Assembly (NCBI GenBank): GCA_947626145.1
Contig: CANQRB010000004.1
Span: 29,250-93,249, forward strand
Source of the DNA: an uncultured Clostridia bacterium
GTDB lineage: Bacteria; Bacillota; Clostridia; UMGS1883
Reading direction: 5' to 3'
DNA: 64,000 bases
Each line of letters starts with the position of its first letter. The stretch's first letter is position 1. The position numbers and the translations under genes are program-made. Below are positions 3,051 to 27,409 of this stretch, in pieces. The notes below the pieces were generated by a model. It was not told the DNA's origin and made no database searches. It worked only from the letters and a program-made list of their open reading frames with translations.

Positions 3051-3069
3051 AACCTTTGCCGACTGTTTT

Positions 3070-3609
3070 ATGAGTGAACTTAAGCGAAAAATCAAAGCAT
3101 GGCTTGACGACTTCCAATTCCGCCACAATTTCAATCTGGCATGGTTCATACGCTACGCCCTCGGCGGCACCGCCACGGTGATTTTGGAGTACACGGTAAT
3201 GTACCTGCTGCTGTGGTGGACCCTGCCATGGGACGTGATAGTGGCCCTCCTGCCGGAAAGGCTGCAGGCCGCCGCCGCAGGCGAGCTCAGCACCTGGGCG
3301 CTGGTTGTCAGCAACGTCATGAGCTATGTTTTCAACTATTTTGTCTCAAAATACTGGGTGTTCCGCAGCCCCGACACCAAACACAGCCGTGACGCGGCGC
3401 TGTTTTTCCTGTCCTGCGTGGTGAATTTGATCCTCGTTTCGGTCACCGGCAGGCTCGCCCTTGCGGGGCTGGAGCTTCTGCCCCTCGCCGGAAAGACGTG
3501 GGAGATGCTGAAGCCCGCCGTGGCCAAGACCGTGTCCAACATAGTAGCCTATATCTCGGTGCTGCTGTTCAAGCGGTTCATAATCTGGAACGATACCAGC
3601 AAATATTGA
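3070..3609 (+). CDS. GtrA-family small polytopic membrane protein
   Basis: 179 aa with 4 predicted TM helices. The N-terminal FIRYALGGTATVILEYTVMYLL resembles the GtrA family signature. Confidence 0.5.
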   Translation: MSELKRKIKAWLDDFQFRHNFNLAWFIRYALGGTATVILEYTVMYLLLWWTLPWDVIVALLPERLQAAAAGELSTWALVVSNVMSYVFNYFVSKYWVFRSPDTKHSRDAALFFLSCVVNLILVSVTGRLALAGLELLPLAGKTWEMLKPAVAKTVSNIVAYISVLLFKRFIIWNDTSKY

Positions 3610-3613
3610 TATT

Positions 3614-4198
3614 ATGTTAATAGACGAAGCCGCGAATTTGATAATGGAAAAGGCCGCCTCTCTCCGGCGCGGGGAGGGGCCGCTTGTTATTGCTCTGGAC
3701 GGCCGCTGCGCCTCGGGCAAGACCACGCTGGCCGGTAGGCTCGGGGAGCTGATGGGCTGCGCGGTTTTTCACATGGACGACTATTTCCCCCGGCCCGAAC
3801 AGCGGACGGAGCGCCGCCTTTCGGCCCCCGGCGGCAACGTGGATCACGAGCGCTTCCTGTCGGAGGTGCTTATTCCCCTGCGCTCTGGAGCGGAGGAGAT
3901 ATGCTTTCGTCCCTTTGACTGCCATAAAATGGAGCTGGCCCCGCCCGTTAAGGCGCGGGTCACGCCCACCGTGGTGGTGGAGGGCTCATATAGCTGTCAT
4001 CCGGCCCTGTGGGATTGCTATGACTTGCGGGTGTTCCTCACGGTAACTCCGGAGGAACAGCTCCGGCGCATAGCCCTGCGCAACGGCCCCGACGGGCTGA
4101 AAAGCTTCCGTGAGCGGTGGATACCCATGGAGGAGCGGTATTTTTCCGCCTTTCGGATAATGGAGCGATGTGATATTGTGGTCGGAGATCGGGAGTAA
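3614..4198 (+). CDS. P-loop nucleoside/uridine-kinase-like ATPase
   Basis: Walker A IALDGRCASGKTTLA near the N-terminus, followed by MDDYF. This resembles the uridine kinase/AAA-ATPase family. About 194 aa. Confidence 0.5.
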   Translation: MLIDEAANLIMEKAASLRRGEGPLVIALDGRCASGKTTLAGRLGELMGCAVFHMDDYFPRPEQRTERRLSAPGGNVDHERFLSEVLIPLRSGAEEICFRPFDCHKMELAPPVKARVTPTVVVEGSYSCHPALWDCYDLRVFLTVTPEEQLRRIALRNGPDGLKSFRERWIPMEERYFSAFRIMERCDIVVGDRE

Positions 4199-4231
4199 TA
4201 GAAAATCGGCAGTAATAACTTTTCACACGAC

Positions 4232-4262
4232 AAAAACGGAACCTTTCGGTTCCGTTTTTGTT
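4232..4262 (+). terminator. Rho-independent terminator after the kinase-like gene
   Basis: aaaaacggaacc-tttc-ggttccgttttt: a perfect 10-bp stem followed by a T-run, 34 nt after the stop codon. Confidence 0.7.
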
Positions 4263-4532
4263 TGGCTCGGGCCGCCCTGTGGTCGAGGCAGGGCGGCCTT
4301 GTGCCTGTAATTTAAGGAAGAATTATAACCACGCTTTCTTTCAGCTCGGTTTTCCGGGCGGCAGCTTCCTCGCGCGCGCCGCCTTTTTTCTGTCCGGCTC
4401 CGCTGCAGACGGGCGGATCAGGGATGGCCTCGCCTTTGGAAAGCGGCGGTTAACTTGGGTCGGGGTGGCCGGTCTGTTGCGGCCACGGTGTGAGTGGAAT
4501 CAGTTTGCAAAAATCTGTTAACACAAAATAGT

Positions 4533-4706
4533 TTATTGTTTCTGCTTCCAAACCTTATAATCGTCAACAACAGATTTTGTATCTGTGATAACTTTTGCCC
4601 CGGTTATGCCTAAACTGGTCGCTTGGAACAGAACCCCGTCCATAACGGCCTTATCGGGAGACAGGTCTTTAATATCTATTGCGGGATTTTCAAATGCTTT
4701 TCTCAT
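4533..4706 (-). CDS. Small hypothetical protein (57 aa) directly downstream of the large surface-protein gene
   Basis: Not in the ORF track (<60 aa). ATG at 4706..4704 is preceded by GGAGG with a 9-nt spacer. Translation: MRKAFENPAIDIKDLSPDKAVMDGVLFQATSLGITGAKVITDTKSVVDDYKVWKQKQ. It begins 15 nt after the stop of the 1034-aa gene. Confidence 0.4.
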   Translation of the reverse strand: MRKAFENPAIDIKDLSPDKAVMDGVLFQATSLGITGAKVITDTKSVVDDYKVWKQKQ

Positions 4707-4720
4707 TTTAATCTACCTCC

Positions 4721-7700
4721 TTACAGCTCGGGAATGAAGTCGACTTCCGCACCAGCGGAATCAGCTTCGGTCTCGGCGATTTCGGTACTTACAAACTCAA
4801 TCTCAACACTGTCTAGGCTGAAGATCATAGCACCATCAACGCCTTCACAAGTAACATCATTGCCATTGATAGTTATCTTATAGAACAAGCCCTCAGTTTG
4901 AGTTGCTGTTTTATCTGTGCCGTTTACATCAACAATGGTAGATACCTTGAAGCCTATACCATTATCGTAAAGGGCTTTATCCAGTTCTATCGTTGTTCCT
5001 GCTTCACTGCTTGTAACTTTAATGAATTCTTTACGAACATCGTTAATAGCGTTCTTGTCATCAAGAACAACACCGCCGGTGCTGAGAATAGCAATGGCCT
5101 GTTCAAGCTTTTTTGCATCAAATTTTTCACGATTCAAAGTATCTTTGTAGTCGCTAAGGTTGGTTTTGATATCGTTAGCAAGCAACTCATAAAGAGATGC
5201 TTCAGCTTGAGCGATGAGATAACCGCTATTTGTGTCAACAAGCCTTGCCATATAGTAAATATTGCTTCCATTGTCTTTTTTCGGAATAACAAGTACAGAC
5301 GGAGCCCCGTTACTGAGGACAGAAGTGTCTATAGTCGTATTGTCTACTCCTTTACCGCCTTTTTCATTTGTTGTTTCGTGAAGATCAATAGCTGTAACCT
5401 TTAGCGTCTGTCCATCATAAGCACCATCGGCAGTAAAAGTTATGCCCAAAGTATCCGCACTGTCTCCATCAGCAGCAAAGCCAAGTCCAGCGGTGAGTGT
5501 AGCCGTCGCAGGAACGTCCACGCCACCTGCATATACGGCAAACTTGCTGATCTCAAGGTCTCCTTCACTTGAGGGATTGTTTCCAAAGAAGGAAACACCG
5601 TCAATTCCTCCATTGTTACGGAATGGTATGCCCATCAACATTTTACCTTCACCGGATGATTCATTCCGCACGGAAAGATTATATGTGTTATTTGTAACAT
5701 CAACATCTACGATAAAAGCATATGACTGATTAAGCTCCATTGTCATAAATTCTTTCTTGGCGGCGTTGTCTCTGTAGTAAATTTTGTCGCCACCGATAGG
5801 CAAATGAATACGAAGATTTGTGCCATACGCATCTGTCCCTTTTGCGTCGTACTTAAAAAATCCGATAGCGTTGTCGCCGTTTTGTTTGGCAACAAGAGTA
5901 AATGCGACGGTAAATTTGTCTGATATTTCTTTAGGGAAACGATACATTTCACTAAATGTCCTACCCTGATTGTTGATTACTGAGTTAGAACCAACGGTCA
6001 TGCCGGCTGTAGGATCAAATGTCTTTTCATGAGTCACAACATTTGCCGTCAAGGTAAGGCCTGTATCGGCGATAGTGCCGGTAGTATCCTCCCATGTTAC
6101 GGGCAATTCCTCGGCTGTCACTGCATCACTGTCAACAGTGGTCTTAATTGCGGTGGGAAGAACATAGTTATATCCTTCGAGAGTATTAATGTCAATGCTG
6201 TCGGGGCCGGTGATGGTGGCAGTTAACTCGGCCTCAACCTCAATTTCCTTAGTAGTGGTTGCGATAATAGTATCCTGATCAGACGCCTTATTGGTATAAT
6301 ATTTATCTGCTATGCGACGATTAGTAATAATCTTGCCATCACTGGCGGCACGGCCTTGATCAACGACCTGGTTTTCTGCAACTTTTACCGTTTCGCCTAC
6401 CTTGCCGGTCTGTTTCTCGATAGTGGCTACAGTTTGACCCTTGTATTTGGCATTTATGACGTAATCCACATCGTCGTTTTCAAGATTGCTAAGTTTGGTT
6501 ATTTTGAAGTTGTCGATGATGGGCTGAGTATCGTTACCGACCCAAGCGGTCTTAAAGCCCAGTTTTGTCTGCTTGGAACCGGTCCATACAATAAACTGCT
6601 TCGTCTCAAATTGATTGAGAGTGTGCAGGGTCATCTGCTGAAGCTTTTGGCTGGTATTGTCATTTTTGTCGGCATACCAATCAGCGCAGGGGTCGTCGGC
6701 CTCGCCGGTGCCATTGGCATCGGTTACGTAAAGCCACATATACTGATCCTTTGCCTGCTTGGTTGGCATGACGTCAAAGCTCACGAGATAACGGGTATTG
6801 GGGTCAACATTCCAAGTGCCGCCGAAAACAGTTCCGGCCGCACCGGCAACGCCCTTGAGCCAAAGAGCCTGGCTTCCTTCGGTCTTTTGGTTCTCACCCT
6901 TGACTATCTCATATTCTTCATTGGGTATATTAGTCCAACCATTAATACCATTTTCAAAGCCGTCGTTGGTGCCGGTAACAGTTCCCTCGACATTTTTTAC
7001 ATGTTTGGCGGTAATGTCGTAGTTGTTATTACCTTCACTCAAAGTGATCTCTTTGATTTCGGGGAGAGCAAGTTCATAAAGCTTTTCATTTTTAACAAGG
7101 TACTTGTTGCAACTGTTGAGAGAAAACTTATCTCCGGCAAAGTATTCCTTTTTATTTCCGTTTGGATTAGACTCCTCCAAAACATTTCCGCCGTCCATTA
7201 TGCGAACATTGACAGCAGCGTCGGGAGACAAAACCTTAACATCAGCAAGGTAAGCATCCTTAAGAGAAGCTACACCCCCAGTGGCATCTCCGCCGTGGAT
7301 ATTGGAGAGCAGAAAAGCGACCTTACCACCAACTATCTTATCGGCAGGAATACGGAGCTGAGACGTCACCTCAGTCCATGAATTAGATACATTTGATGTA
7401 CTCAGTGTTCCGACAAGAACTCTGCCCTCAACAGCAGTATCGAGCAGAGCGTTGTTCTCAGCTTCAACAGCTGCAGGGTCAACAGCAAAAATGGCAGCTT
7501 TAGATATACGGTCGTTAGCACCATTGTTAGACCATGCCTGAACCTTAAAGGTAGCCCGAAGAATTTGACCGGCAGCAACATTAGTGTCTTCTGGCAGTGT
7601 GAATTCAGCAAAACCCGCACGGTTATTTGAGAAAGACACTATGGCAGACTGAGCGTCTTGAACTTTGTATTCGTCAAATGTTTGCGGACGCTTAGCATCG

Positions 7701-7825
7701 GAATTAAAATTCCAACCATAAAGCTTATCTGCGGCGATATCTCCATCAGCCGCAAAAGCTACGGGCACTACTGTCAATACCATGGCCAAAACCACAGCCA
7801 ATGACAGAACTTTTTTGATTCTCAT
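4721..7825 (-). CDS. Large secreted multidomain protein (1034 aa) with CBM4/9-like and Ig-like modules; function unknown
   Basis: Signal peptide MRIKKVLSLAVVLAMVLTVVPVAFAADG. GGAGG RBS 8 nt upstream of the ATG. Internal stretch GFENGINGWTN...ALWLKG...RYLVSFDV looks like CBM_4_9, with beta-rich repeats elsewhere. Acidic C-terminus, no LPXTG or SLH motif. Lower GC than flanking DNA. Confidence 0.8.
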   Translation of the reverse strand: MRIKKVLSLAVVLAMVLTVVPVAFAADGDIAADKLYGWNFNSDAKRPQTFDEYKVQDAQSAIVSFSNNRAGFAEFTLPEDTNVAAGQILRATFKVQAWSNNGANDRISKAAIFAVDPAAVEAENNALLDTAVEGRVLVGTLSTSNVSNSWTEVTSQLRIPADKIVGGKVAFLLSNIHGGDATGGVASLKDAYLADVKVLSPDAAVNVRIMDGGNVLEESNPNGNKKEYFAGDKFSLNSCNKYLVKNEKLYELALPEIKEITLSEGNNNYDITAKHVKNVEGTVTGTNDGFENGINGWTNIPNEEYEIVKGENQKTEGSQALWLKGVAGAAGTVFGGTWNVDPNTRYLVSFDVMPTKQAKDQYMWLYVTDANGTGEADDPCADWYADKNDNTSQKLQQMTLHTLNQFETKQFIVWTGSKQTKLGFKTAWVGNDTQPIIDNFKITKLSNLENDDVDYVINAKYKGQTVATIEKQTGKVGETVKVAENQVVDQGRAASDGKIITNRRIADKYYTNKASDQDTIIATTTKEIEVEAELTATITGPDSIDINTLEGYNYVLPTAIKTTVDSDAVTAEELPVTWEDTTGTIADTGLTLTANVVTHEKTFDPTAGMTVGSNSVINNQGRTFSEMYRFPKEISDKFTVAFTLVAKQNGDNAIGFFKYDAKGTDAYGTNLRIHLPIGGDKIYYRDNAAKKEFMTMELNQSYAFIVDVDVTNNTYNLSVRNESSGEGKMLMGIPFRNNGGIDGVSFFGNNPSSEGDLEISKFAVYAGGVDVPATATLTAGLGFAADGDSADTLGITFTADGAYDGQTLKVTAIDLHETTNEKGGKGVDNTTIDTSVLSNGAPSVLVIPKKDNGSNIYYMARLVDTNSGYLIAQAEASLYELLANDIKTNLSDYKDTLNREKFDAKKLEQAIAILSTGGVVLDDKNAINDVRKEFIKVTSSEAGTTIELDKALYDNGIGFKVSTIVDVNGTDKTATQTEGLFYKITINGNDVTCEGVDGAMIFSLDSVEIEFVSTEIAETEADSAGAEVDFIPEL

Positions 7826-8059: not shown

Positions 8060-8283
8060 TAAAATTTCATGTGCCGATCATAGGAAAGCCTCGGAAAAAG
8101 GCCGTGTTAAGCCGGATTTGCCCGGTTGACGGCGCAGAGGTCGACTGCAAAGCCAGCCTTGGAGCGATGAATGGCCGCTCGGTTTTACTTCCGATAGCAT
8201 TTCTTATCGGAAGTTCGATGAAATCATACAAAAAAGCACCTGTGACAAGCTCTTTATCGTGAGCTTGCCGCAGGTGTTTTTTT
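8060..8283 (+). ncRNA. Candidate ~220-nt structured transcript (sRNA or cis-regulatory leader) between the orphan promoter and a strong terminator
   Basis: Several internal stems, including the perfect palindrome cttccgatagcatttcttatcggaag (8188-8213). It ends in a 16-bp hairpin + T7 at 8237-8283. The only ORF (8071-8262) has no RBS and a non-protein-like composition. Confidence 0.3.
8237..8283 (+). terminator. Strong Rho-independent terminator
   Basis: cacctgtgacaagctc-tttatcgt-gagcttgccgcaggtg followed by ttttttt. Confidence 0.7.
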
Positions 8284-8318
8284 AATGTGATGCCGTTATT
8301 TTCGATATAACGCAAAAA

Positions 8319-8343
8319 GCAGCCGATTTCGGCCGCTTTTTTT
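8319..8343 (+). terminator. Second tandem terminator
   Basis: gcagccga-ttt-cggccgc followed by ttttttt. Confidence 0.55.
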
Positions 8344-8425
8344 ATTATACGCCTACGTCGCAATCCGTTCTTTGGTATCATAGTTGTATAGGCTTGTATT
8401 TCGCATAAAAAATTTAAAATTTTCC

Positions 8426-8454
8426 TGCAACTTTTCGATCCTTTGCAACGAATA
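8426..8454 (+). promoter_or_regulatory. Putative ECF-type (autoregulated) promoter for the sigma operon
   Basis: TGCAAC-N17-CGAATA, with the AAC -35 core and CGA -10 core typical of ECF sigma promoters. It sits ~20 nt upstream of the TTG start. A second GCAAC direct repeat follows. Confidence 0.35.
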
Positions 8455-8471
8455 TATTAAGTGGAAGGAGG

Positions 8472-9041
8472 TTGAGCGGATTGGCGGCGGAGCACGAGGA
8501 ACTTAAATGGATAAGGAAAATCAAGCTGTTCGGTTCAAAAAAAGACGCCGACAGTCTGGTTCGGTCTTATTACGATGAGATTTACAGATATGTATCCCGA
8601 CAGCTTCCCGACAGCGGGGACGCCTGGGATCTTACTCAGGAAATCTTTATATCCATGCTGCGCTCCATAAAGTCGTACAAAAAAGAACGGTCGTCCTTCC
8701 GCACATGGCTGTACCGCATCGCCACAAACAAAATTATAGACTGCCGCCGGAAAAAGGTTCCGACGACTGCCGCGCCCGACGAAGTCAATACAGCCGACGA
8801 TGCCGATTTTATAAGTCAAATCGCCCAGGCCGAGCTGCTGAAAAAAATCGAGGGCTATGTCAACCGCTTTTCGCCCGCCGTGCAGCAGATATACAGACTG
8901 CACATTTACGGGGATTTTACCTTCGCAAGCATCGCTTCAGCCCTGGACATCCCTGAGGCCACCGTAAAATCCCACTATTACAGATTGCAGAAAAAAATAA
9001 GAGAGGAGTTTGGCGATGAGTACAGAGACGTTGTCGAATGA
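8472..9041 (+). CDS. ECF-family RNA polymerase sigma factor (sigma-70 region 2/4)
   Basis: TTG start with GGAAGGAGG RBS. Region 2 DLTQEIFISMLRSIKSYK..FRTWLYRIATNKIID and region 4 HTH EATVKSHYYRLQKKIREEF. 189 aa. Confidence 0.85.
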   Translation: MSGLAAEHEELKWIRKIKLFGSKKDADSLVRSYYDEIYRYVSRQLPDSGDAWDLTQEIFISMLRSIKSYKKERSSFRTWLYRIATNKIIDCRRKKVPTTAAPDEVNTADDADFISQIAQAELLKKIEGYVNRFSPAVQQIYRLHIYGDFTFASIASALDIPEATVKSHYYRLQKKIREEFGDEYRDVVE

Positions 9042-9759
9042 CGAAAAGGATATTGCCATAAAAAAAATTTTGGACGCGGGCGTCGTTACCCCTTGGGACA
9101 GGGTGAAAAAAAACTTGCTGGCGCTCCGTTTCTGCGCGCCGAAGCACATATTTTTCGACATGGGCGACTGCCTGTTTTTGGGACTGCTGGCGGCAGCGGC
9201 AGGTTGGATATTGCTTTTGAATATAAACGGCGGCTTTGTCTGCTGTTCCCTGCTGCTCGCCTCCCCTTTTGCATATATGATAACCTGCCTTCTGACGGCG
9301 TGGAAGGAGCGTCAACGGCGGATGTATGAAATAAAAATGACCTGCTATTTTAATCTGCATCAGGTGACGGCCCTCCGGATGCTGTATTTCAGCGGCCTTA
9401 ATTTAATTGTAAATTTTGTCATGATTCTGCTCGAACGCCGAATTTCTATTTTGGGAGCTTTGTTCTGGCGGCTTTTGGGCATTTCCTTTTCCGGCATATT
9501 TATTTACGGAGTTTTGCTAATAGCTTTCCAAATAAAAGTCCATGGCAGAATGTCCGTTATCTTACCGCCTGTTTTTTGGCTGATGATAAACAGCGTGATA
9601 TTCATTGTATGGAACGAAAGAATAGAATTTATAATATTAAATTTATCCGTTTATATAGTATATCTTGTGACGGCGGGACTGCTCATGCTGTATATTGCGA
9701 TGCTATACACCTATATGACGAATTGGAGAGGAGAAACAGACTATGCTTTCAGTGAATAA
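9016..9759 (+). CDS. Polytopic membrane protein co-transcribed with the ECF sigma (candidate anti-sigma/sensor)
   Basis: ATG at 9016 with GAGAGGAG RBS (the track start 9010 is TTG). ~70-aa soluble N-terminus followed by ~6 TM helices. Overlaps the sigma gene's 3' end. Confidence 0.6.
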   Translation: MSTETLSNDEKDIAIKKILDAGVVTPWDRVKKNLLALRFCAPKHIFFDMGDCLFLGLLAAAAGWILLLNINGGFVCCSLLLASPFAYMITCLLTAWKERQRRMYEIKMTCYFNLHQVTALRMLYFSGLNLIVNFVMILLERRISILGALFWRLLGISFSGIFIYGVLLIAFQIKVHGRMSVILPPVFWLMINSVIFIVWNERIEFIILNLSVYIVYLVTAGLLMLYIAMLYTYMTNWRGETDYAFSE

Positions 9760-10600
9760 CGTCACAAAAAAATACGGTGATTTCACTGCGCTTCAAGACA
9801 TAAACATTGAGTTTGACCGAGGAGTTTACGGACTGCTGGCGCCCAACGGAGCCGGAAAAACCACTCTGATGAAAATGCTGGCCACCCTTTCCTTCCCAAC
9901 AAAGGGGGAGATTTTGTGGAACGGCACGGATATATTTCAACTGGACGAGGAATACCGTGATATTCTGGGCTTTTTGCCGCAGAAGTTCGGCTATTACAGG
10001 AATTATTCCCCGCGCAGGTTCTTGGGCTACATGGCGGCGTTAAAAGGCATAGAAAAAAACGGGGCGGAGGAAAAAATCGACTCACTTCTTAAAAAGGTCT
10101 TTCTCGAAGAATTTGCGGATAAAAAAATGAAGCAGTTTTCAGGGGGTATGCTCCAACGGGTAGGCATCGCTCAGGCTCTGCTCAACGACCCCGAGCTGCT
10201 TATTCTGGACGAGCCCACCGCCGGACTTGACCCAAAGGAGCGGGTTCGCTTTCGCTCCATGCTCCACTCTTTGGCCGGTGAACGCATAGTTATTCTGTCA
10301 ACTCATATCGTTTCCGACATTGAAACAATAGCTGATAAAATAATTTTGCTTAAGGATCATAAACTGCTTTGCTGTGCCGCGCCCACAAGGCTGTGCTCCG
10401 CGTTGCAGGGCAAAATTTTTGAGATACCCGCCGACAGGCATATTGACGCGCCCTGTGAAATTCTGTATGAGCGCCAGACCGGAACAGGGACCGTCCTGCG
10501 TATTTACAGCGAGTCACGCCCTGACGGAGCAACGGAAACGGCCGCGAACCTTGAGGACGTGTTCCTGACGGTTTACCGTGACGAAAGGAGACAAAAATGA
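9743..10600 (+). CDS. ABC transporter ATP-binding protein
   Basis: Walker A LLAPNGAGKTT, ABC signature FSGGMLQRVGIAQAL, Walker B LLILDEPTAGLD. GGAGAGGAG RBS. Confidence 0.9.
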   Translation: MLSVNNVTKKYGDFTALQDINIEFDRGVYGLLAPNGAGKTTLMKMLATLSFPTKGEILWNGTDIFQLDEEYRDILGFLPQKFGYYRNYSPRRFLGYMAALKGIEKNGAEEKIDSLLKKVFLEEFADKKMKQFSGGMLQRVGIAQALLNDPELLILDEPTAGLDPKERVRFRSMLHSLAGERIVILSTHIVSDIETIADKIILLKDHKLLCCAAPTRLCSALQGKIFEIPADRHIDAPCEILYERQTGTGTVLRIYSESRPDGATETAANLEDVFLTVYRDERRQK

Positions 10601-11751
10601 AACTGATAAAATCGGAAATTAAGAAGCTTGTATTTAACAAAAGCCTGTATTTTTTTCTGGCCATTTGCCTGACGTTAAATCTTGCGCTGATCGCTGTGAC
10701 GGGCGGCGAACGTTCTTATATAAAATATATTGGAGAAATCACGGCGAACGCCGGAGACAGGATCAACCGTTCTTTTCTTAATTATGTCAGCGCTTTGCCG
10801 GACAGCGAGTTCATCGACCGCCTCACAGCCGCCTGTGCCGGTGCGGGAAAAATCTTCGACAGCTTTGACGCGGCGGCATTGGGCAGAAACTGGTATTATG
10901 ATGAATACTATATAAAGTCCTCTTTCCTTCATAGAATGTTATATGAGAAATACGAAAAATTAAACAATTCAGTGAAATTGCTGAATTCCGAAAACGCCGA
11001 TCTGTCCGTTTACGGGGCCGACGCCACGGGGAATTTCCATGAGGCTCTGTTTACATATACACTCAAAGCGCTGATGATAGAGGGATTTATACTTATTTCT
11101 CTCCTTACGATCCACATAATGGGCATTGAACGTCAAAGCCTTACCGAGTCCATAATATATTCCAGCCGAAGAGGTCGGGCCCTTGTCAAAGACAAAATGT
11201 GCGCCGCCTGGATAGTGAATACCGGCTGCATCTTGCTGCTGTACGGGTCAACGCTGGCGTTTTTCTTTTCGGTATGGGATATCGGCGGCCTTTGGGAAGC
11301 CAACGTGTCAAGCTGCTTCCACCTTGTGACGGACGTTGATCTGCCGTTTCTGAAGCCTTTCCTCACTTGGACAAGCTTCACGGTAAGAGAGTATTTCACC
11401 GCGACTCTGCTTTTGGAAGCCGCATTGCTGTTGGTGTGGCAGCTCATATCCTCCTGCATCGGAATTTTGTGCGGCAGTTCCGCCAAAGGATTTCTGACGG
11501 CGGCGGCCTGCCTTACGGGTCCGTATTTTCTGCCGTTTGTTTTTAAATCGCTGAGCTGTGGGTGGTCATTTTATATTAACACCTTTTCCATCTCAATGTT
11601 AACGCTTAATCAGCATTTGTGGTTTACGGACATGGGTGTTTACGAGCTGCTGCCGTGGCAGGAAACCTTGTCGGCCGGAATACATTTATCCGTGTGTGTT
11701 CCGCTCTTTTTTACGGCAATTAAAATATTCAAAAGAAGGGAGCTGATGTAA
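10597..11751 (+). CDS. Polytopic membrane protein (ABC-2-type permease-like), function unknown
   Basis: 384 aa with multiple TM segments. Its start overlaps the ATPase stop (ATGA). Confidence 0.6.
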   Translation: MKLIKSEIKKLVFNKSLYFFLAICLTLNLALIAVTGGERSYIKYIGEITANAGDRINRSFLNYVSALPDSEFIDRLTAACAGAGKIFDSFDAAALGRNWYYDEYYIKSSFLHRMLYEKYEKLNNSVKLLNSENADLSVYGADATGNFHEALFTYTLKALMIEGFILISLLTIHIMGIERQSLTESIIYSSRRGRALVKDKMCAAWIVNTGCILLLYGSTLAFFFSVWDIGGLWEANVSSCFHLVTDVDLPFLKPFLTWTSFTVREYFTATLLLEAALLLVWQLISSCIGILCGSSAKGFLTAAACLTGPYFLPFVFKSLSCGWSFYINTFSISMLTLNQHLWFTDMGVYELLPWQETLSAGIHLSVCVPLFFTAIKIFKRRELM

Positions 11752-12933
11752 ATGTTTGTCTGGGAGCTCAGAAAAGTTTGGACAAAGGAGCATATCTTAC
11801 TCATCGCCGCGGTCACGCTTCTTTTTTCTCTGACCTTTCTTGTACCGCCAATAAGGTCGGTGACTGTGACAGAAGAGGGCGAGGAAATCTTCTCCGCGAG
11901 GATGGGGATAATCAAGGAGTGGCTCAATAAATATGACACACAAATTACGCCTCAGGAATTTGAAGAGATAAAAAGGATCTATGATGAACGCCTTTCCGAC
12001 GGACAGGCTGTCATTTCAACGCAGCCCTATTTCGCGGAGAATAATGTGTTTACTTATGACGACTATCTTTCTTACGGTAATAACGCCCTGAACGGCGCGG
12101 AAGGCTACTCCTACGACAGCTTCCGCAAAATGCGTGAGTTCATATCCGAAGGCACCGATTATTCCGCCATGTATTATCAGGAGTATGAAGATCTCATACA
12201 TAAATATGTTGACGGCAGCTCGCGAAAAGCTCGTTATATTGAAACGCTCCTGTCCGGCAAAGCCGAAAAGGCCGCAATATCCGAGCTCGACACGCTTCGC
12301 CGAACCAAAGGCGTCGGCAGTCTGCTGCCCGGCGAACTTGTGTACGCCGCAAACCGTTACTATGTCAACCTCTCAATTTTGCTCATTATATTGGCGATGT
12401 TCATTTCCGGGCCTGTCATGGTCAACGATAATGCCAATAACATTCGGCCGGGGCAATACAGCAGCAAAATCGGTCTCAAAATATATCAGCGTCAGTATGC
12501 GGCCATGGCGGTTTCTCTTTCCGCACTTACGGCACTCATGCTCATCGGCAGCTTGACGCTTTGGCTTGCAGTCGGGGCCGGCCGCTTTTTCCAATGCGGC
12601 ATCTTTGCTTTTCAAATGATGGAAACGCCGGTGACGGGCGATCTATCGTTTGGCGTGTATTTGGTTTTGATTTCGGCGCTGATTTTTATTCTTGTAAACG
12701 GTGTTGGCGGGCTTATGTTTTATCTTTCCGGCACGAGCCGCAATTTTATCGAGATGCTGATGAAATCGATACCCGCCGCGGTTTTTGGGATAATGCTGTC
12801 GCTTTCTTTAAATGACCTGTTTCTCAATACAAACTTTCTTTTCCGTATGACAGGGATAAGAGGTGTGGAGATTTTTCCGGTTATTTTGATTTTCATATTT
12901 GGATTATTGATAAATTTAAAAGGGATACGTTAG
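11752..12933 (+). CDS. Polytopic membrane protein with a large extracytoplasmic loop, function unknown
   Basis: 393 aa. N-terminal TM, a ~180-aa soluble loop, then 5-6 C-terminal TM helices. Starts 1 nt after the previous stop. Confidence 0.6.
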   Translation: MFVWELRKVWTKEHILLIAAVTLLFSLTFLVPPIRSVTVTEEGEEIFSARMGIIKEWLNKYDTQITPQEFEEIKRIYDERLSDGQAVISTQPYFAENNVFTYDDYLSYGNNALNGAEGYSYDSFRKMREFISEGTDYSAMYYQEYEDLIHKYVDGSSRKARYIETLLSGKAEKAAISELDTLRRTKGVGSLLPGELVYAANRYYVNLSILLIILAMFISGPVMVNDNANNIRPGQYSSKIGLKIYQRQYAAMAVSLSALTALMLIGSLTLWLAVGAGRFFQCGIFAFQMMETPVTGDLSFGVYLVLISALIFILVNGVGGLMFYLSGTSRNFIEMLMKSIPAAVFGIMLSLSLNDLFLNTNFLFRMTGIRGVEIFPVILIFIFGLLINLKGIR

Positions 12934-12995: not shown

Positions 12996-13030
12996 CGAAA
13001 CGGACGCTCCGCTTGGAACGTCCGTTTGAT
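12996..13030. terminator. Bidirectional terminator between convergent operons
   Basis: aaacggacg-ctccgcttggaa-cgtccgttt, flanked by A/T runs on both sides. Confidence 0.55.
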
Positions 13031-13092: not shown

Positions 13093-13404
13093 CTATTCTA
13101 ACTTTTTTTGATAATCGCTTTTAGCATAAACGACTCTCGTAACAGTTATCAGCTTCTCGCGCTCATCCACACGATAAAACATAATATAATTCTTAATCAG
13201 CAGTTTACGGTACTCATATTTTAAAGTTTGGAGTGGGCGATAAACAGGCATGGAATACGGAAAAACTCTGATTTTTTCCGCTTCGGTTATAAACTCCTCA
13301 GCTAACCGTCCGGCCGCAATGGGATTTGATAATGTTTTGCCGATATATGTCACAATGTTAATCATATCCTGTTGGGCGATAGGCTGAAACTCCAAATCAT
13401 ACAT
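13093..13404 (-). CDS. Type II toxin, RelE/ParE family
   Basis: ~103 aa. MYDLEFQPIAQQDMINIVTYI...YRKLLIKNYIMFYRVDEREKLITVTRVVYAKSDY matches the ParE/RelE fold pattern. Its start overlaps the antitoxin stop (ATGTATGA). Confidence 0.8.
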   Translation of the reverse strand: MYDLEFQPIAQQDMINIVTYIGKTLSNPIAAGRLAEEFITEAEKIRVFPYSMPVYRPLQTLKYEYRKLLIKNYIMFYRVDEREKLITVTRVVYAKSDYQKKLE

Positions 13405-13675
13405 TTTCGGTTTCTCCAATCGCCTCGCGCATATTTTTCAAGACTTCTTTTGGTGAAAACCGCTTGTTTGTCATTTCCGCCTCATACTCCGCCTCCTTAA
13501 GCTTAAAGTACACTTCGCTTTCAAACTGAAGATTTTCATAAGCTTCCATACTCATAACAACCATGTCGCCAAAACCGTTTTTTGTTAAGAAAACGGGCTG
13601 CTTTGTTTCGTGGACTGTCTTGGAAATATCCGCAAATTTATTTCTTAAGTCCGAAACGGGTCTTATTAAATTCAT
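13397..13675 (-). CDS. Type II antitoxin, Phd/YefM family
   Basis: Start at MNLIRPVSDLRNKFADISKTVHETKQPVFLTKNGFGDMVVMSMEAYENL, a classic Phd/YefM N-terminus. AGGAGG RBS 7 nt upstream. Confidence 0.8.
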   Translation of the reverse strand: MNLIRPVSDLRNKFADISKTVHETKQPVFLTKNGFGDMVVMSMEAYENLQFESEVYFKLKEAEYEAEMTNKRFSPKEVLKNMREAIGETENV

Positions 13676-13705
13676 AAAAATTCCTCCTATCATATTATGA
13701 TTGTA

Positions 13706-13727
13706 TTTTAGCACAATTATGCTAAAA
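13706..13727. promoter_or_regulatory. Perfect inverted repeat (candidate Phd/ParE operator)
   Basis: ttttagca-caatta-tgctaaaa, 30 nt upstream of the antitoxin start. TA promoters are typically autoregulated through such palindromes. Confidence 0.45.
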
Positions 13728-13778
13728 TTGCAAGAGGAAATTTTTATTTTTATAAAGTGATTTCCTTGCTAAAGCTAC

Positions 13779-13813
13779 AAAAAATGAGCTATGGAGGGTT
13801 GGCTCCATAGCTC
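13779..13813 (-). terminator. Rho-independent terminator of the M4 protease gene
   Basis: On the minus strand gagctatggag-ccaacc-ctccatagctc is followed by tttttt. Confidence 0.6.
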
Positions 13814-13927
13814 GATAACTTACGTAGTGCCTATATTGTACAGTCTTGCGCCTGACGCACCGCGGTCGCAAAGCTTCCTATTCGAGGGCAAATGACCTGA
13901 TAAGTGATAGCCTATTGCAAATCTAAA

Positions 13928-16900
13928 TTATAAGGCTATCATACCATCAGTTTCATCATTACCATTAAGTTCTTCGTCCTTTTTGCCTGTGTTTTTATTC
14001 TCAGATATATCTCCTTCGAAAGCTGTTTCGACGGACTCTTCATTTTTAAGTTCTTTGCCTCCAAACTCATTACTGATATCCTTTATTGGCACTTTGTCTG
14101 GCAAGGATTCAATAGAAACTAGTGACTCTTCATCATGATAATTTATTAATATGCCATTAGATATTTTGAATACAGGCCAAGAGTTTCCTGATTGGTTAGA
14201 AGAAACTTTGTACACCTCAACTAAGTTATTTCCATTATATAACTCTACCTGTGCACCCGAAGTCGCCCAAGTACCTTCACCGTAGAACCAGTATACATAA
14301 TATTCATATGTGCTATTTATGTCCACTTCAAATGTAACGGTTTCCGGCCCTTCTCCATCGGTATCATCCACATCCAAATTGGCCACCAAATCTCCTGATG
14401 CATTATATCCGTTTCTGTTAGAAAAATATACATGAAAGTTTCTATGGTCTGAAAGGCTTCCAACCAAATGAGAGTCTAAGTCGCTGGGATTCATGTTCCA
14501 ACGAAGAACTGCCCTATATTGATTGCTAGTCATCGAAGGAGAAATGCTTCCATTTTGATTGGCAACTTCTCTTCCCCCAATTATTGTGACGTTGAAATAT
14601 CCGGTGGTGTATCCGTACTTTTCCATTTCTATTGTATAATACCCAGAGGATGCAGTTAGTGAATATTCACCACTACCGTTAGTTATTGTTGAAGATATTT
14701 CCTCACCTTTACTACTATTCCACCCGTTTCTCAACCTGACTATTACGCCATCAATAGGATATCCGGTTGTTGCGCTTGTAATAACGCCGCTTATTTTTCC
14801 TTCACCAGACTTTACAAGTTTAACAAGTTCTTCTGTTTGGTTGTCTTTTGTTACTGTCGCAAGCCCGTAGAAAGGCATATAACCGTCTTTTTCAATAACA
14901 ACAGAATATGTTCCCACATCAAGAGACAGTTCTTTTGCTCCCTCTGCGCCTATTTGAACTTTCCCAATCAAGAAATCATCATCAAGTATAGATATAGTTG
15001 CATCTTTTATAAATGTTTCATCTTCCGCATCAACAATTTGTATATAAAGAGTACCTCTATCCCCATATATACCAACATCATCAAATGCACGTTTTATAGT
15101 CATTTTTTCCGCTTTAGACAATCCCTGAGTATCAGCTTGAAGCAGTACATTTCTCCTTACGGTTTTAAAGTTAGAATTTGCACTGAAGCCCTTGCCCAAC
15201 GAACCATACCATAGGTCTATAAGCTTAGACATTGAAATGGCCGGAAGACTATAAGAGGGATAGCCTTGTGACATTAAATATGCAGCATGAGAAATTACTG
15301 ATGAATTCGTGTGAGCAAATACTGATTTATTACCAGTATTAGTGCACCAATTAGTTCCACCAACTTTACTGGGCTTATGGCAGGAAGATGGATCCTTAAC
15401 ATTTCTTAATGGTCGCCAGTCCTCCCCTATGGTATAGTTATTATCATCAACGAACCATCCAAAGATATCTGCGTATGCTTCGTTGATTGCATAAGATATA
15501 TGACCATTACTGTGATCGTGACTAAGTCCATTCCCTGTCTTAAACTGAACTACTCCATGAGTGTACTCATGAGCAATAATATCAAGTCCGCTGGCCGTAG
15601 TAGTTTGGAGATTACTGTCGTTATTACTATTATCATAAAAATAGAATTCTTTGTTGCCGCCTGTCCAACACGCATTACTACTGCCTCCAAATTTATGAAC
15701 AGTTACTTTAATAGGATATCCATTCCCGTCCACAGAGCGTCTGCCCAAAGTGTCCGCATACCAATTATATACATCTATCATATTGGTGTATGCAGAAATA
15801 GCCGTTTTATCTCGCCATACATTAAATTCACTGCCAACTCTACTATTAACAAGTCCCCCATCATACATTTTAATGTTTCTCTCTGAATCTTCCATATAGT
15901 AGAATAACCAATCCCATTGTTTAAATTGTACGGGGAATGACACTTCGGTATTTTTTTCATTTTCACCGCTACCAGTTACTCTTTTGTCGCCCCAGTCTAA
16001 AATATTGCTTCCAGAATAAATTACGGAACCAGTATATCCATTTATGATTACAGTTTCGTCAATATTGTCGCCAGACAAACAAATTACATATGCTACAACA
16101 GGACTTTGCTCATATTCATCAAGAGAATATATAACTACCTCTGTTGATACAACATCTACTGATTCTTGCGGGTACTGACTTTTAGCAATATTTATTGCTT
16201 CACTTTCTGATATCACGGGGTCGGTATTTACATCAACTAAGTTTGCAGATGCAACTACATCGGATGTTAATGAAGTAGATGTTCCATTATTATCTACAGA
16301 CACGGTTAAATTTCTATCATAAACGTCAAGCCCATTATATTGTTGACTAAAAGTATAATCAGTTCCGTATTTGCCAGAATTTGTCACAGATATATTTAAT
16401 TCTTTTATTGGATCGTTCATGCCAAGAATTGTTCGAACTCCGTATATTGCATAAAGAGCATCGTCTGGGGAGTTTATATCAATATCACTTATTTTACCAC
16501 TTATCGCTGTTACTTGGGATCCCTCTTCATTGTATTCTATATAAGTATCAAAATCTGCATCCTTATTCATTTGCTCTATATCGACAACTGAATTATTAGG
16601 AGACTCATTAATATTAAAGTTACTTTCTTTTATAACCGTAACTTCAAAAGATTTTGTTAAATTATAGTCTCCTTTCGATATGCTAGCGTTGAGTCTAACA
16701 TTTTTATTCTCATTTATCGGACGTGAGACGGAACCGCTTTCTGAAACTACATTAATATTGTTACTTTCCCATGATATATCTACTGTTTCAATCATTGTTG
16801 GTAAAATCAAATCATGAGTAACAGATTCTTTACAGTCACCTTTACTATATGTAATTTCAAGAGTATCATATGCATATTGAACTATCGCTTTATTAAATTC

Positions 16901-18244
16901 ATTCTCATCATATTCTACCCACCTTGCATACAAAGTTAATTTATTGTTAACGGCCAATTTAAAATCATAGATATTTTCGCAATCCCTATCAGTATACCAG
17001 CCACCAAACAAATAATCTTTACGTTCAGGGTCTTTGGGAATTGTAACATTATTTCCAGCTAAAATCTCTTGACTTTCAGGCGCATCCTCTGCCCCTTCAT
17101 AATTCAAATCAAAGGTGACAGTGTAAACGCCGTCCTCCTCAATTTCTTCTTCCCAACCAGCATACAGAGTCAAGCGCTCGGTAATTTCCGTGTTCTCAAA
17201 ATCAAACTCATAAACGCATTCCTCATCTGTGTACCAGCCCGTGAAGATATAGCCCTCTCTTTCGGGATCATCGGGACGCTCTGCATAATCGTTCTTCTTT
17301 ACTTTCTGGGTAGCCGGAGGATTTTTCGCTCCTGAATAATTCAGGTCAAATTTTACATTGTATCTCGTGGTGCCGCCGGAGCTTCCGCCACCACCGCCAC
17401 CACCGGTGGAACGACTTATCGTATATTCAACGCTCATCACATCGCTGACAAGAACATCATCTTTTACCGCGATTGCCTTCAGTGTCGCGGTAGACAGTAT
17501 ATTTATATTGCCACCTGTGTATTCCTCGCTGTCAACTGTGGGCTCTGTTCCATCGGTCGTATAGTAAATCTTAACGCCCTCGGTGTCGCTCTTAAGCGTT
17601 ACAAGCTGATTTACATAATATGTGCCCGCCTCAACGGACGCGACAGGGGCGGCTACCGTTGTGCGGAGACCGTTATAAACCATTACGGCAATGTCCCCAC
17701 GGGTAGAGGCTGATCCCTTTCTGCCCTTGAGGTTATCCGTTATACCGTTATCCTCAGCCGCTTTAATATAGCCGGCAGACCAATCATCAGGGTCGGATTC
17801 AACATCGTCGCCAAGACCGACGCCGCAAACCACCATCTTTATGGCCTCTTCATATTTGACGTCGTCATCCGGCATAAATCCGCCGCTACCGTTGCCGTTT
17901 ATTATCTCCTCTTTCGCGGCGACATTGATGTAGCCGCTGGCCCAGTGGTCGGCGGGAACATCGTCAAACTTTGTGGCGCCCTTGGAATTGCGGGCATCGT
18001 TCTCCTTGCCTATCATGCGGCATACTACCGCCGCCATTTCGGACCTTGTGATAGATTTATCCGCCCCAAATGTACCGTCGGCGTAGCCGGTGAAAATGTC
18101 GAGCTTTTCCAGAGCGAGAGCCGCCTCGGCGTAATACTCATTCCCCGTAACATCGGAAAAGACCGTGCCTGCGGCAAAAGCACCGATCGGCGCAAGCGAC
18201 AGTGTCATTGCCAAAACTAAAATGATGCTTAAAAATTTTTTCAC
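13928..18244 (-). CDS. SLH-domain cell-surface M4 (thermolysin-like) zinc metalloprotease, ~1438 aa
   Basis: Likely GTG start (MKKFLSIILVLAMTLSLAPIGAFA signal peptide) with a GGAGG RBS. Three SLH repeats sit at the N-terminus. A chitobiase/Fn3-like domain and a Gly/Ser linker follow, then two Listeria-Bacteroides (Flg_new) repeats (YIFTGWYTDEEC, YLFGGWYTDRDC) and a PepSY/FTP-like propeptide. The M4 catalytic core has HEYTH (HExxH) and the third zinc ligand in AINEAYADIFG. Carboxypeptidase-regulatory-like beta domains are at the C-terminus. Low GC. Confidence 0.85.
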   Translation of the reverse strand: MKKFLSIILVLAMTLSLAPIGAFAAGTVFSDVTGNEYYAEAALALEKLDIFTGYADGTFGADKSITRSEMAAVVCRMIGKENDARNSKGATKFDDVPADHWASGYINVAAKEEIINGNGSGGFMPDDDVKYEEAIKMVVCGVGLGDDVESDPDDWSAGYIKAAEDNGITDNLKGRKGSASTRGDIAVMVYNGLRTTVAAPVASVEAGTYYVNQLVTLKSDTEGVKIYYTTDGTEPTVDSEEYTGGNINILSTATLKAIAVKDDVLVSDVMSVEYTISRSTGGGGGGGSSGGTTRYNVKFDLNYSGAKNPPATQKVKKNDYAERPDDPEREGYIFTGWYTDEECVYEFDFENTEITERLTLYAGWEEEIEEDGVYTVTFDLNYEGAEDAPESQEILAGNNVTIPKDPERKDYLFGGWYTDRDCENIYDFKLAVNNKLTLYARWVEYDENEFNKAIVQYAYDTLEITYSKGDCKESVTHDLILPTMIETVDISWESNNINVVSESGSVSRPINENKNVRLNASISKGDYNLTKSFEVTVIKESNFNINESPNNSVVDIEQMNKDADFDTYIEYNEEGSQVTAISGKISDIDINSPDDALYAIYGVRTILGMNDPIKELNISVTNSGKYGTDYTFSQQYNGLDVYDRNLTVSVDNNGTSTSLTSDVVASANLVDVNTDPVISESEAINIAKSQYPQESVDVVSTEVVIYSLDEYEQSPVVAYVICLSGDNIDETVIINGYTGSVIYSGSNILDWGDKRVTGSGENEKNTEVSFPVQFKQWDWLFYYMEDSERNIKMYDGGLVNSRVGSEFNVWRDKTAISAYTNMIDVYNWYADTLGRRSVDGNGYPIKVTVHKFGGSSNACWTGGNKEFYFYDNSNNDSNLQTTTASGLDIIAHEYTHGVVQFKTGNGLSHDHSNGHISYAINEAYADIFGWFVDDNNYTIGEDWRPLRNVKDPSSCHKPSKVGGTNWCTNTGNKSVFAHTNSSVISHAAYLMSQGYPSYSLPAISMSKLIDLWYGSLGKGFSANSNFKTVRRNVLLQADTQGLSKAEKMTIKRAFDDVGIYGDRGTLYIQIVDAEDETFIKDATISILDDDFLIGKVQIGAEGAKELSLDVGTYSVVIEKDGYMPFYGLATVTKDNQTEELVKLVKSGEGKISGVITSATTGYPIDGVIVRLRNGWNSSKGEEISSTITNGSGEYSLTASSGYYTIEMEKYGYTTGYFNVTIIGGREVANQNGSISPSMTSNQYRAVLRWNMNPSDLDSHLVGSLSDHRNFHVYFSNRNGYNASGDLVANLDVDDTDGEGPETVTFEVDINSTYEYYVYWFYGEGTWATSGAQVELYNGNNLVEVYKVSSNQSGNSWPVFKISNGILINYHDEESLVSIESLPDKVPIKDISNEFGGKELKNEESVETAFEGDISENKNTGKKDEELNGNDETDGMIAL

Positions 18245-20366
18245 GATTGTAACCTCCAATTTTATTTATTCACTTTCTAATTGCAGGAAAACACCGCCAC
18301 TGTATGTCACGCCCCCTTTTGGGCGAATTTGTCCTCCGTACAATAAAAAATGCGCAGCTCATCGGAGCCGCGCACGAAAAATGCTTAGCTCCGAATTTAC
18401 TGCGACATAAATTAATATAACACAAAAGAAACGCATTTTTGGCACTCGCTCATTAAAAATGCAACCAGAGCGTTACAGGAGCAGCATTTTTACCAATGCT
18501 AATGTTGCTCCGGTTAGCACTTTTATACGTTAGAATGTTAAAACAATGATAGAAAATATAGGTACTCAAAAAAGAGCGCAAAAAGCGAACTTAATAAGCG
18601 TTTCTATATTAATCTATGTCGCAAATAAAGTATACCACACATTTTTCCGGTTGTAAAGTGTTTTTTTTTCGTAAATGAATAATTTTTTATAACATATTCG
18701 CCGCGAAACCCATCTAGGCGCTTATCTTGCTGCTGAACGGCTCCCCGACTGTTTTACAAAAGAGTCGAACATTGCACAAATTCGTTCTTCGTAGGAAGGA
18801 GCTGCCACAACATTTCCCTCCTTTTGCTAAAAATTGTTCTTGGTCGGTTTTCCCCCCCTTTGTAATACCGGAACAATTTAAGTTATACAAAATCGGAAAT
18901 TTTTTTAAATTATCTGAAAAAGTCAAAATAAAAAGGACAGATTAATATCTATCATTCTCAGTATTCAATTACATCGCCTTTAAAAATCCCCTCCGGCGCA
19001 TGAGGGGGTTTACGCCGGAGAAAATTTTATATATCAAAGAGGCCCGTGCCTCTTAATTTTTGCGGCCGGTTATGCCTGAGTCGCGGCGTCCGTCTTGACT
19101 CTGCGGAAGCGCACCAGACCCGTACGGTGAAGGGCAACCATTATTGCCGGGATAAGCACAAGTTGAAGTATTATTCCGGGGATGGCGTTAAGCACCGCAG
19201 TCTGCGCAGGACAAAAAACCTGAAAAGATGTCGATTTCGCCTGACTTTGTTGGTCTATGTTGCATGGCGATCCGCTTCTGTGCAAGCTCAAAGATTTCTT
19301 CGTCAATTAACGGCTCATGCGTATTAGGTAAGAAATAGCGTTGTTCTGCCTCTTTTTCGACTTATACGAAACCTTGTGTGTTTTCTCAGTGATGATATGC
19401 CCTAAATACTTTTACCGTGTCAGGATGTCAAACAGCGTTTTCTCCGGCCATGTGTAAGGAGCGATCAAGGCTTTCTGATGTCGCGCATTCCTCGTCCGCT
19501 CATAACGTAATGCACCGATTGTCAAAACCTTGTTGTCGTCAAGCCATCGCTGAATATCGCACATCTGAGTATCCTTCACATACATGACGAAAATCTGCTT
19601 GACTATGAGATGTATCCGTATGGATATTCCCCGTTGACGTGCTCGCCCTTTTGAGTCCGCGCCTGCTTTGCGGCTCGGTGGTTGTCGCTCGGCATATTCT
19701 CTCGGATATGTGTCATGGCACACCCGCCGTATGGCTCGGCGCAAAAGGGATGTGTCCTTTGTTGCTGTTATGATGCCTCGCTGTTATCTTGCGGGCAAAT
19801 TTGTCGAGGTTCGTACAGATGGGGAGTATCGGAAAGGGGGATTTATGCGCCGCTCCAGGTCGTCGGGTCAGTTCACCTGAAAAGTCAGAATTTTTGTAAT
19901 GAGCTTCGTTTCCAGTCTGCTGATCTTCGTCTACGCACAAATGAGGATTGCCATACTCGTCGTTTTCGATGTACACTGTATGATCCAGAATACCGAAAGC
20001 CCTGTCCTCTTTGAAATAACTGTCTCAGACTGAAAGCTGATTCATTACTTCAACAGGAAATTCGACAAAGAAAATCGCCTGCCTGCACATGGCAGGCGGG
20101 CGAAACGGAACTAACAGAAGTATTTACGTGATTTATGTGTTCATCTTCCTCGGCAGGGTATCCCGCTTGCTGGGTCAGACTTCTTTTGAGCGAAGAACCA
20201 TTGCCGGAATTTGTCGATATGGAATAGGCTTCATGGCGGCTACCTCCTGTTAGCCGCCATACCTGTTAGCCTGCAGTTTCTTCCCTTGTATCAAGAGAAA
20301 TGGCAGCCTATGAAAAACAAGCATATAACCAAGAGCAGCAGTATATAGGCTCTGCGTCTATGCGTC

Positions 20367-24625: not shown

Positions 24626-24692
24626 TCTGATCTTCCTTTCCAAAAAACAAAGCTTGTTGGATCAATACCGGCTCTGCCGCTTTTCGCAGGTA

Positions 24693-26588: not shown

Positions 26589-26605
26589 AGTAATTCCATC
26601 CTTTC

Positions 26606-27406: not shown

Positions 27407-27409
27407 GGC

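Follow-up and report, generated by a model that had tools for sequence, protein, structure and literature searches.

How is a sigma factor of the extracytoplasmic function (ECF) type held in check when it appears to drive the very operon that encodes it, and do the transporter genes of that operon have a part in its control? The question is raised by a locus in a DNA stretch of 64,000 nucleotides (nt) from an uncultured Clostridia bacterium, called here the window, in which the gene of an ECF sigma factor is followed by those of a six-helix membrane protein (g2), an ATP-binding cassette (ABC) ATPase and two larger membrane proteins (g4 and g5). Our analysis establishes these genes as a real, well-delimited five-gene unit of gut Clostridia, with invariant synteny and horizontal mobility. 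It also leads us to favour, with some reserve, a reading in which g2 keeps the sigma factor at the membrane, perhaps while it is itself bound to the transporter.

The five-gene unit and its promoter

Five open reading frames (ORFs), all on the plus strand and spanning positions 8472-12933, were found to overlap or abut one another, in agreement with the tight five-gene operon that an original prediction, made from the letters of this DNA, had proposed. The genes and the signals that precede them are as follows.

8426-8431, plus strand: -35 element TGCAAC; all 22 of the related loci compared have TGMAAC in this position
8449-8454, plus strand: -10 element CGAATA, 17 bases 3' of the -35 hexamer, read from the sequence and its relatives
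8463-8471, plus strand: ribosome-binding site GGAAGGAGG of the sigma gene, 9 nt 5' of TTG 8481
8481-9041 (ORF open from TTG 8472), plus strand: sigma gene, encoding an ECF (group 4) sigma factor of 186 amino acids (aa)
9016-9759 (alternative start 9010), plus strand: g2, membrane protein of 247 aa with six transmembrane (TM) helices and its N-terminus inside; candidate anti-sigma factor or transporter-docking subunit
9743-10600, plus strand: ABC ATPase of the DrrA/ABC-2-associated type, 285 aa
10597-11751, plus strand: g4, ABC-2/type V permease of 384 aa
11752-12933, plus strand: g5, remote paralog of g4, 393 aa, its presumed heterodimer partner

The sigma gene and g2 overlap by 26 nt (8-14 nt in the related loci L001, L024 and L026), g2 and the ATPase gene by 17 nt, and the ATPase gene and g4 by 4 nt (ATGA); g4 and g5 abut. 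A GGAGG at 8467-8471 precedes TTG 8481 of the sigma gene, and a GAGGAG at 9003-9008 precedes ATG 9016 of g2. These two starts are favoured because the public gene calls for identical DNA give the same products, with lengths of 186, 247, 285, 384 and 393 aa for the five genes.

To place the operon among its relatives, we collected 40 related loci by looking up contigs with genes for relatives of g2 or for the window's own g4 protein, by a genome scan and by a metagenome scan; the last of these was seeded with a distant subfamily (A7) that is only 20-25% identical to the g2 of the window. Within the limits of their contigs, all 40 show the genes in the order sigma, g2, ABC ATPase, g4, g5, and this supports an obligate linkage between the sigma gene and an ABC transporter. 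Among the related loci examined, no gene outside the five is conserved with the cassette. The hosts include Lachnospiraceae, Acetatifactor, Eisenbergiella, Oscillospiraceae/Oscillibacter and one member of the Eggerthellaceae. The flanking genes vary between loci, and integrase genes adjoin the cassette in four of them (L001-L003 and L005). In the window, the cassette has a guanine-plus-cytosine (GC) content of 0.45-0.48 and lies inside a low-GC stretch of about 30 kb (0.38-0.48), whose flanks have values of 0.52-0.63. A tblastn search of 72,556 plasmids with g2 and g4 gave no match.

The original prediction had also described a promoter of the ECF-autoregulatory type ahead of the sigma gene. 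The element TGCAAC-N17-CGAATA is present as described and is conserved among relatives: each of 22 related loci contains exactly one TGMAAC-N17-CGAATA, and in every case it stands about 30 nt 5' of the sigma start. In the distant subfamily, the -35 element takes the forms TGAAAC, TGAGAC and TGCGAC. The -10 element is CGAATA in every readable locus except L038, which has CGACTA, and the 17-base spacing is unchanged in every locus with a readable site, the distant subfamily included. The spacer and the flanking sequence diverge among relatives. The single copy in each of the 22 loci and the unchanging spacing identify the motif as a conserved element. A second TGCAAC, at 8444-8449, shows no conservation in the relatives. 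The -35 variants were also compared with the region 4 helix of the sigma factor for signs of co-variation; the trend is no more than weak, with exceptions in L010 and L018, and we base no claim on it.

Taken in the window alone, the motif is not significant: with one mismatch allowed, the exact site is the only match in the 64 kb, and one match or more also turned up in 46 of 100 shuffled versions of the window. This unremarkable count would suit the explanation that unrelated genes have come to lie side by side by chance, behind a promoter-like motif of random origin, but that explanation is refuted by the five-gene order, which is the same in 40 loci down to 20-25% g2 identity, and by the occurrence of the motif once, at the same place and with the same 17-base spacing, in all 22 loci. 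ECF promoters are characterised by AAC in the -35 and a CG-containing -10 element (PMC5758882), and both are found here ahead of the sigma factor's own operon. TGCAAC-N17-CGAATA is a phylogenetic footprint, that of a promoter which bears the ECF signature. Autoregulation of the operon by its sigma factor is the natural reading of this arrangement, and it is the one we infer.

The first gene was correctly predicted to encode an ECF sigma factor. Its product matches Pfam Sigma70_r2 (E 4.1e-20, residues 29-95) and Sigma70_r4_2 (E 1.1e-7, residues 129-171) and scores 93 bits against TIGR02937, whose cut-off is 42.9. With sigma-2 and sigma-4 domains only, no sigma-3 or sigma-1.1 domain and a length within 170-200 aa, it has the composition of an ECF (group 4) protein. 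The closest solved structure is that of B. subtilis SigW (5wuq, E 9e-14). By its score of 69.4 bits against the SigY equivalog NF007216, for which the cut-off is 194, the protein is not a SigY ortholog.

The third gene encodes an ABC ATPase, as had been read from its translation (Pfam ABC_tran PF00005, E 3.2e-28). Its best NCBIfam models are drrA, GldA and a lantibiotic-protection ATPase, all of them below their curated cut-offs, and the protein is 60-81% identical across related cassettes. The two proteins encoded after it had been considered unrelated polytopic proteins, and BLASTP indeed reveals no similarity between them. Their family profiles (A2 for g4, A3 for g5), however, align over 345 columns with an hhalign probability of 96% (E 3.8e-9), and an SSRRGR motif after TM2 is common to both. 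In g4, an N-terminal interface helix is followed by TM1, a helical extracytoplasmic insert of about 115 aa (residues ~36-150) and five TM helices; g5 has the same topology, with an acidic insert of about 160 aa that hydropathy places outside the cytoplasm. The transmembrane fold of g4 is the ABC-2 (type V) and not the type VII fold. That g4 and g5 are paralogous ABC-2 permeases is therefore a solid conclusion, and one DrrA-like ATPase gene together with two paralogous permeases makes a complete ABC-2 exporter. The g4 family comprises 172 clusters at 90% identity.

None of the three membrane proteins g2, g4 and g5 belongs to a Pfam family, the ABC-2 membrane families included, at E <= 1, and nothing was found for them in Pfam, NCBIfam and PADLOC scans, PADLOC giving generic ABC-ATPase similarity only. 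Family profiles of the three, compared with the sequences of the Protein Data Bank (PDB), gave nothing meaningful.

The resemblance of the ATPase to lantibiotic-protection ATPases (TIGR03740, 159.7 bits) raises the question of whether the cassette, in the manner of LanFEG self-protection, is dedicated to exporting, or conferring immunity to, a bacteriocin or another product of the same mobile element, instead of sensing a foreign compound. Two different permeases, like LanE and LanG, and the mobile-element context would fit such a role, and sigmaY of B. subtilis has been linked to the maintenance of the SPbeta prophage, which encodes the production of sublancin and resistance to it (PMC4105308). 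However, the TIGR03740 score is far under the cut-off of 309.75, so that the ATPase does not qualify as a member of the LanFEG type; no biosynthetic or precursor-peptide gene is conserved beside the cassette, whose flanks differ in every context examined, and the boundaries of the cassette are the promoter and the end of g5. We consider this explanation quite improbable.

The role of g2

Both hydropathy and an AlphaFold2 (AF2) model give g2 six TM helices, and hydropathy places the N-terminus inside. The original prediction had already noted the six helices and the lack of recognisable homology, and we find no Pfam or NCBIfam match either. It had put the cytoplasmic N-terminus at 70 aa; according to hydropathy and the model, the soluble part measures about 44 aa and contains two short helices (8-20 and 26-39). 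A word-indexed search returned close relatives in 29 clusters, and an exhaustive profile search extended the family to 443 clusters at 50% identity, nearly all of them with proteins of about 240-260 aa. Ten distant members of the family have no Pfam family at E <= 0.1, save for two marginal matches to unrelated families. Some longer relatives carry N-terminal extensions, and since no sigma or other domain was found in these, they provide no evidence of fusions.

Conservation in g2 was derived from 130 diverse members aligned out of the best 150 matches. The N-terminal helix conserves E-K-x2-A-I-x2-I-L-x2-G, and further conserved positions are FF..DC in TM1, SP..Y in TM2, R121 in TM3 and W188. 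The most conserved motif, W-K-E...E.K.TC, lies in the cytoplasmic loop between TM2 and TM3, at the position that the coupling helix occupies in ABC-2 permeases. The predicted fold as a whole resembles ABC-2 transporter permeases, and g2 probably, though not certainly, has an ABC-2-like fold.

Several features fit an anti-sigma role of g2. In every locus it is encoded at position +1 with codons that overlap those of the sigma gene, so that position and translational coupling, together with the N-in topology and the conserved N-terminal helix, are those expected of a protein that holds a sigma factor at the membrane. A putative anti-sigma factor is found in 114 of 157 ECF groups, typically encoded at +1 (PMC7826278). 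We also count in favour of this role that a mobile, self-activating sigma operon needs a brake of its own. The evidence neither establishes nor refutes g2 as an anti-sigma factor.

A crude mirror-tree analysis, in which partial correlations of the distances between cassettes were computed for 19 non-redundant cassettes, gave the highest value for g4-g5 (partial r 0.82), followed by sigma-g2 (0.50) and g2-ATPase (0.45); the values for sigma-ATPase (0.07) and sigma-g5 (-0.01) are close to zero. This weakly suggests a chain that runs from sigma to g2, from g2 to the ATPase and from the ATPase to g4/g5. Docking of g2 on the transporter is suggested by the ABC-2-permease-like predicted fold, the motif at the coupling-helix position and this apparent co-evolution with both the sigma factor and the ATPase.

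Other observations weigh against the idea that g2 holds the sigma factor while docked on the transporter. The g2 model is of moderate quality (predicted local distance difference test, pLDDT, 67.7), its Foldseek E-values of 0.17-0.4 are non-significant and its template modelling scores (TM-scores) are below 0.5. Compared by hhalign with g4 and g5, g2 shows no homology (probability <1%), so that its ABC-2 likeness is one of predicted fold and not of sequence. If that fold is taken at face value, it looks like that of a transporter subunit. No anti-sigma domain was found in g2 with Pfam or NCBIfam, and with about 44 aa and two helices its N-terminus is too short for the four-helix class I anti-sigma domain (zf-HC2/RskA type, ~80 aa), for which there is likewise no match in either database. 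Every gene pair of the operon is translationally coupled, and the coupling is therefore not specific to the sigma gene and g2. The mirror-tree chain follows the gene order, so that recombination between neighbours could yield the same pattern, and the 19 cassettes fall in a few clades. Finally, one promoter copy was found per locus, so that the evidence is confined to the cassette itself.

The ABC-2-permease-like predicted fold opens a different reading, in which g2 would be a third ABC-2-type subunit, either as part of an alternative or additional transmembrane-domain dimer or as an accessory protein. It would then not bind the sigma factor, whose activity would depend solely on positive feedback and access to the promoter, or on a regulator whose gene lies elsewhere than in the cassette. 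The location of the most conserved g2 motif, the absence of an anti-sigma domain, the co-variation of g2 with the ATPase (partial r 0.45) and the fact that g2 is never found without the ATPase in the 40 loci all agree with such a subunit. On the other hand, g4 and g5 already form a complete heterodimeric transmembrane pair for the one ATPase gene, g2 is never found without the sigma gene either, always directly 3' of it with overlapping codons, and an autoregulated ECF sigma factor lacking a brake would be unusual. The movement of the cassette between phyla makes a host-encoded outside regulator unlikely, and the evidence for the fold itself is, as noted, of moderate quality. A third subunit of this kind is possible, though we do not think it likely.

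Under the reading that we favour, with g2 as the partner of the sigma factor, the ECF sigma factor would transcribe its own operon from TGCAAC-N17-CGAATA, and the same transcript would supply a complete ABC-2 (type V) exporter, presumably with an ATPase homodimer and a g4-g5 heterodimer, each permease bearing its helical extracytoplasmic insert. The g2 protein, translationally coupled to the sigma factor, would most likely keep it inactive at the membrane by means of its short cytoplasmic N-terminal helices. It may also dock on the transporter or its ATPase, in which case release of the sigma factor would be set by the state of the transporter. Signalling coupled to transporters has parallels in the flux sensing of BceAB-BceS and in the sequestration of MalT by MalK. 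When induced, the operon would be likely to export, or protect against, a compound that acts on the membrane or envelope, an antimicrobial peptide for example, and the whole region would act as a self-contained, horizontally mobile stress or resistance cassette of five genes. In its most specific form, the proposal is that g2 has the scaffold of an ABC-2 permease but works as an anti-sigma factor, docked on the exporter ATPase, that the transport cycle holds and releases the sigma factor, and that the five genes travel together as a portable cassette; we put this complete version forward tentatively and regard it as rather unlikely to be correct in all its parts.

ABC exporter operons under the control of an ECF sigma factor are known, sigY being the example, but they are poorly understood, and the one described here is strictly conserved, self-contained and mobile in gut Clostridia. 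It brings to light three membrane-protein families (g2, g4 and g5) that have no Pfam entry and, being compact and transferable, could serve to study how the wiring of an ECF sigma factor to a transporter is achieved. Should g2 prove to link the sigma factor to the ATPase, the control of ECF sigma factors would gain a new mechanism. Protection against antimicrobial peptides or antibiotics, if that is what the exporter provides, would make the cassette a mobile resistance determinant of the gut microbiota.

Surroundings of the cassette

Two hairpins, both read by eye, lie on either side of the cassette.

8319-8343, no strand assigned: terminator-like hairpin GCAGCCG-ATTT-CGGCCGC with one mismatch, preceded by an A-run and followed by a T-run
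12998-13027, no strand assigned: 9-bp hairpin AAACGGACG ... CGTCCGTTT with a loop of 12 nt and a T-rich run behind it, in the space between g5 and the convergent parE

The upstream hairpin, which a consensus terminator scan did not list, probably insulates the cassette from transcription that arrives from further upstream. The downstream hairpin is probably the operon terminator; the scan missed it because its loop is longer than 8 nt. Directly 5' of the promoter, a minus-strand ORF (8067-8381, 104 aa) gave no Pfam match and has no counterpart in related loci; for this reason, and because it spans the terminator-like hairpin, it is probably not a gene.

The immediate downstream neighbour of the cassette, in convergent orientation on the minus strand (13093-13714), is a toxin-antitoxin pair of ParE and Phd/YefM, which is found after it on the identical public contig, L023, as well. 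The low-GC stretch occupies positions 4000-34000 of the window and sets in just behind secA, prfB and two genes that are GtrA-like and kinase-like (64-4198). It has the look of one large acquired island or of several combined, and the cassette lies within it.

Two kinds of neighbourhood among the related loci are worth recording. The cassette of L005 is flanked on one side by a BceAB-like module, which comprises an FtsX permease, an ABC ATPase, a histidine kinase and a response regulator, and on the other by a pair of VanT-like (Acyl_transf_3 plus alanine racemase) and VanY genes, at 1213-5752 and 13115-15502, with a second ECF sigma gene nearby; the region looks like a cluster of envelope-antibiotic resistance genes. 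In L001 (12582-14713) and L003 (7449-9580), which belong to the Oscillospiraceae-type subfamily, the cassette is followed by a 55-aa ORF, a 103-aa protein with sigma-70 region 4 only and an SLH-domain protein. These three trailing genes are absent from the window.

Elsewhere in the window, all on the minus strand, we observed a 1443-aa surface protein (13928-18259) with SLH domains, Listeria-Bacteroides repeats, a thermolysin-type M4 peptidase with propeptide motif and PEGA/CarboxypepD_reg domains, and a 1034-aa secreted protein (4721-7825) with a signal-peptide-like N-terminus. The latter has no significant Pfam family, its sole match being a sub-threshold one to a mannanase galactose-binding-like domain. 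The interval 23918-28228 contains, in coordinate order, genes for a small synthetase with a RelA_SpoT domain (241 aa), for an Hsp70 (598 aa), for a protein with a DnaJ domain (266 aa) and for a DUF5685 protein (272 aa, E 2e-94); the ends of the last three overlap or nearly abut. The run forms an accessory Hsp70 module.

Comparison with known systems

The original prediction had compared the cassette to BceRS-BceAB, with which it shares the idea of an ABC transporter and its inducing regulator as one unit, the transporter possibly acting as sensor. The label fails on architecture, since the cassette has neither an FtsX-type permease nor a two-component system: BceB is an FtsX-domain (type VII) permease that signals to a histidine kinase, whereas the cassette combines an ECF sigma factor with ABC-2 permeases, and no FtsX, HisKA or Response_reg domain was found in it. 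Sigma-plus-ABC accessory modules have been described in conjugative transposons of C. difficile and proposed to act against antimicrobial peptides (PMC3158075). ECF258 of the Firmicutes also has ABC transporters in its conserved neighbourhood (PMC7826278), but its anti-sigma factor carries DUF4179, a domain that has no counterpart among the Pfam results for g2 at E <= 1.

With ABC-2/type V exporters such as PmtCD, NosFY, KpsMT, Wzm-Wzt and DrrAB, the cassette shares a separate DrrA-like ATPase and permeases of N-in orientation with six helices and an N-terminal interface helix. It differs from them in the helical inserts of 115-160 aa that g4 and g5 carry between TM1 and TM2, in the lack of a Pfam ABC-2 match, and in the fixed presence of g2 as a third protein of ABC-2-like predicted fold, together with that of a sigma factor.

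As a candidate anti-sigma factor, g2 is best compared with DUF1109 proteins. The multipass type, which had been called unusual when the anti-sigma role was first proposed, is represented by six-helix anti-sigma factors in five ECF groups (PMC7826278); among these, NrsF and CarR have been characterised, have short cytoplasmic N-termini and sequester their sigma factors at the membrane (PMC3511200, PMC8156234). Like NrsF of Caulobacter and CarR of Myxococcus, g2 is a six-helix protein in the range of ~210-250 aa, with a short cytoplasmic N-terminus and a gene that is adjacent to and co-expressed with that of an ECF sigma factor. No sequence match to Pfam DUF1109 accompanies this likeness, as g2 has no Pfam family at E <= 1. 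The DUF1109 proteins occur mostly in proteobacteria, and their systems have no fixed tie to ABC transporters, whereas the g2 cassette is ABC-linked; furthermore, the conserved cysteines of NrsF face the periplasm, whereas those of g2 lie in TM1 (C52) and in the cytoplasmic loop (C110).

The closest known layout is that of the sigY-yxlCDEFG operon of B. subtilis (ECF31), in which YxlC, YxlD and YxlE are small proteins, YxlF is the ABC ATPase and YxlG the membrane permease. Both are autoregulated ECF sigma operons, in the case of the cassette by the natural reading of its promoter, and both place membrane proteins, the negative regulators at +1 and +2 of sigY and the candidate g2, ahead of an ABC ATPase and permease on one transcript; the sigY regulon is essentially its own operon (PMC4105308, PMC7826278). 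The cassette has no YxlC/YxlD-type small regulators at +1 and +2: these positions are taken by the 247-aa g2 and the ATPase, and the overlaps between the genes leave no room for small ORFs between them. In place of YxlC, YxlD and YxlE there is thus a single six-helix protein of 247 aa with an ABC-2-like predicted fold. Instead of the one permease of the sigY operon there are two large paralogous permeases with ectodomains, and, as a further difference from sigY, the cassette is mobile among gut Clostridia.

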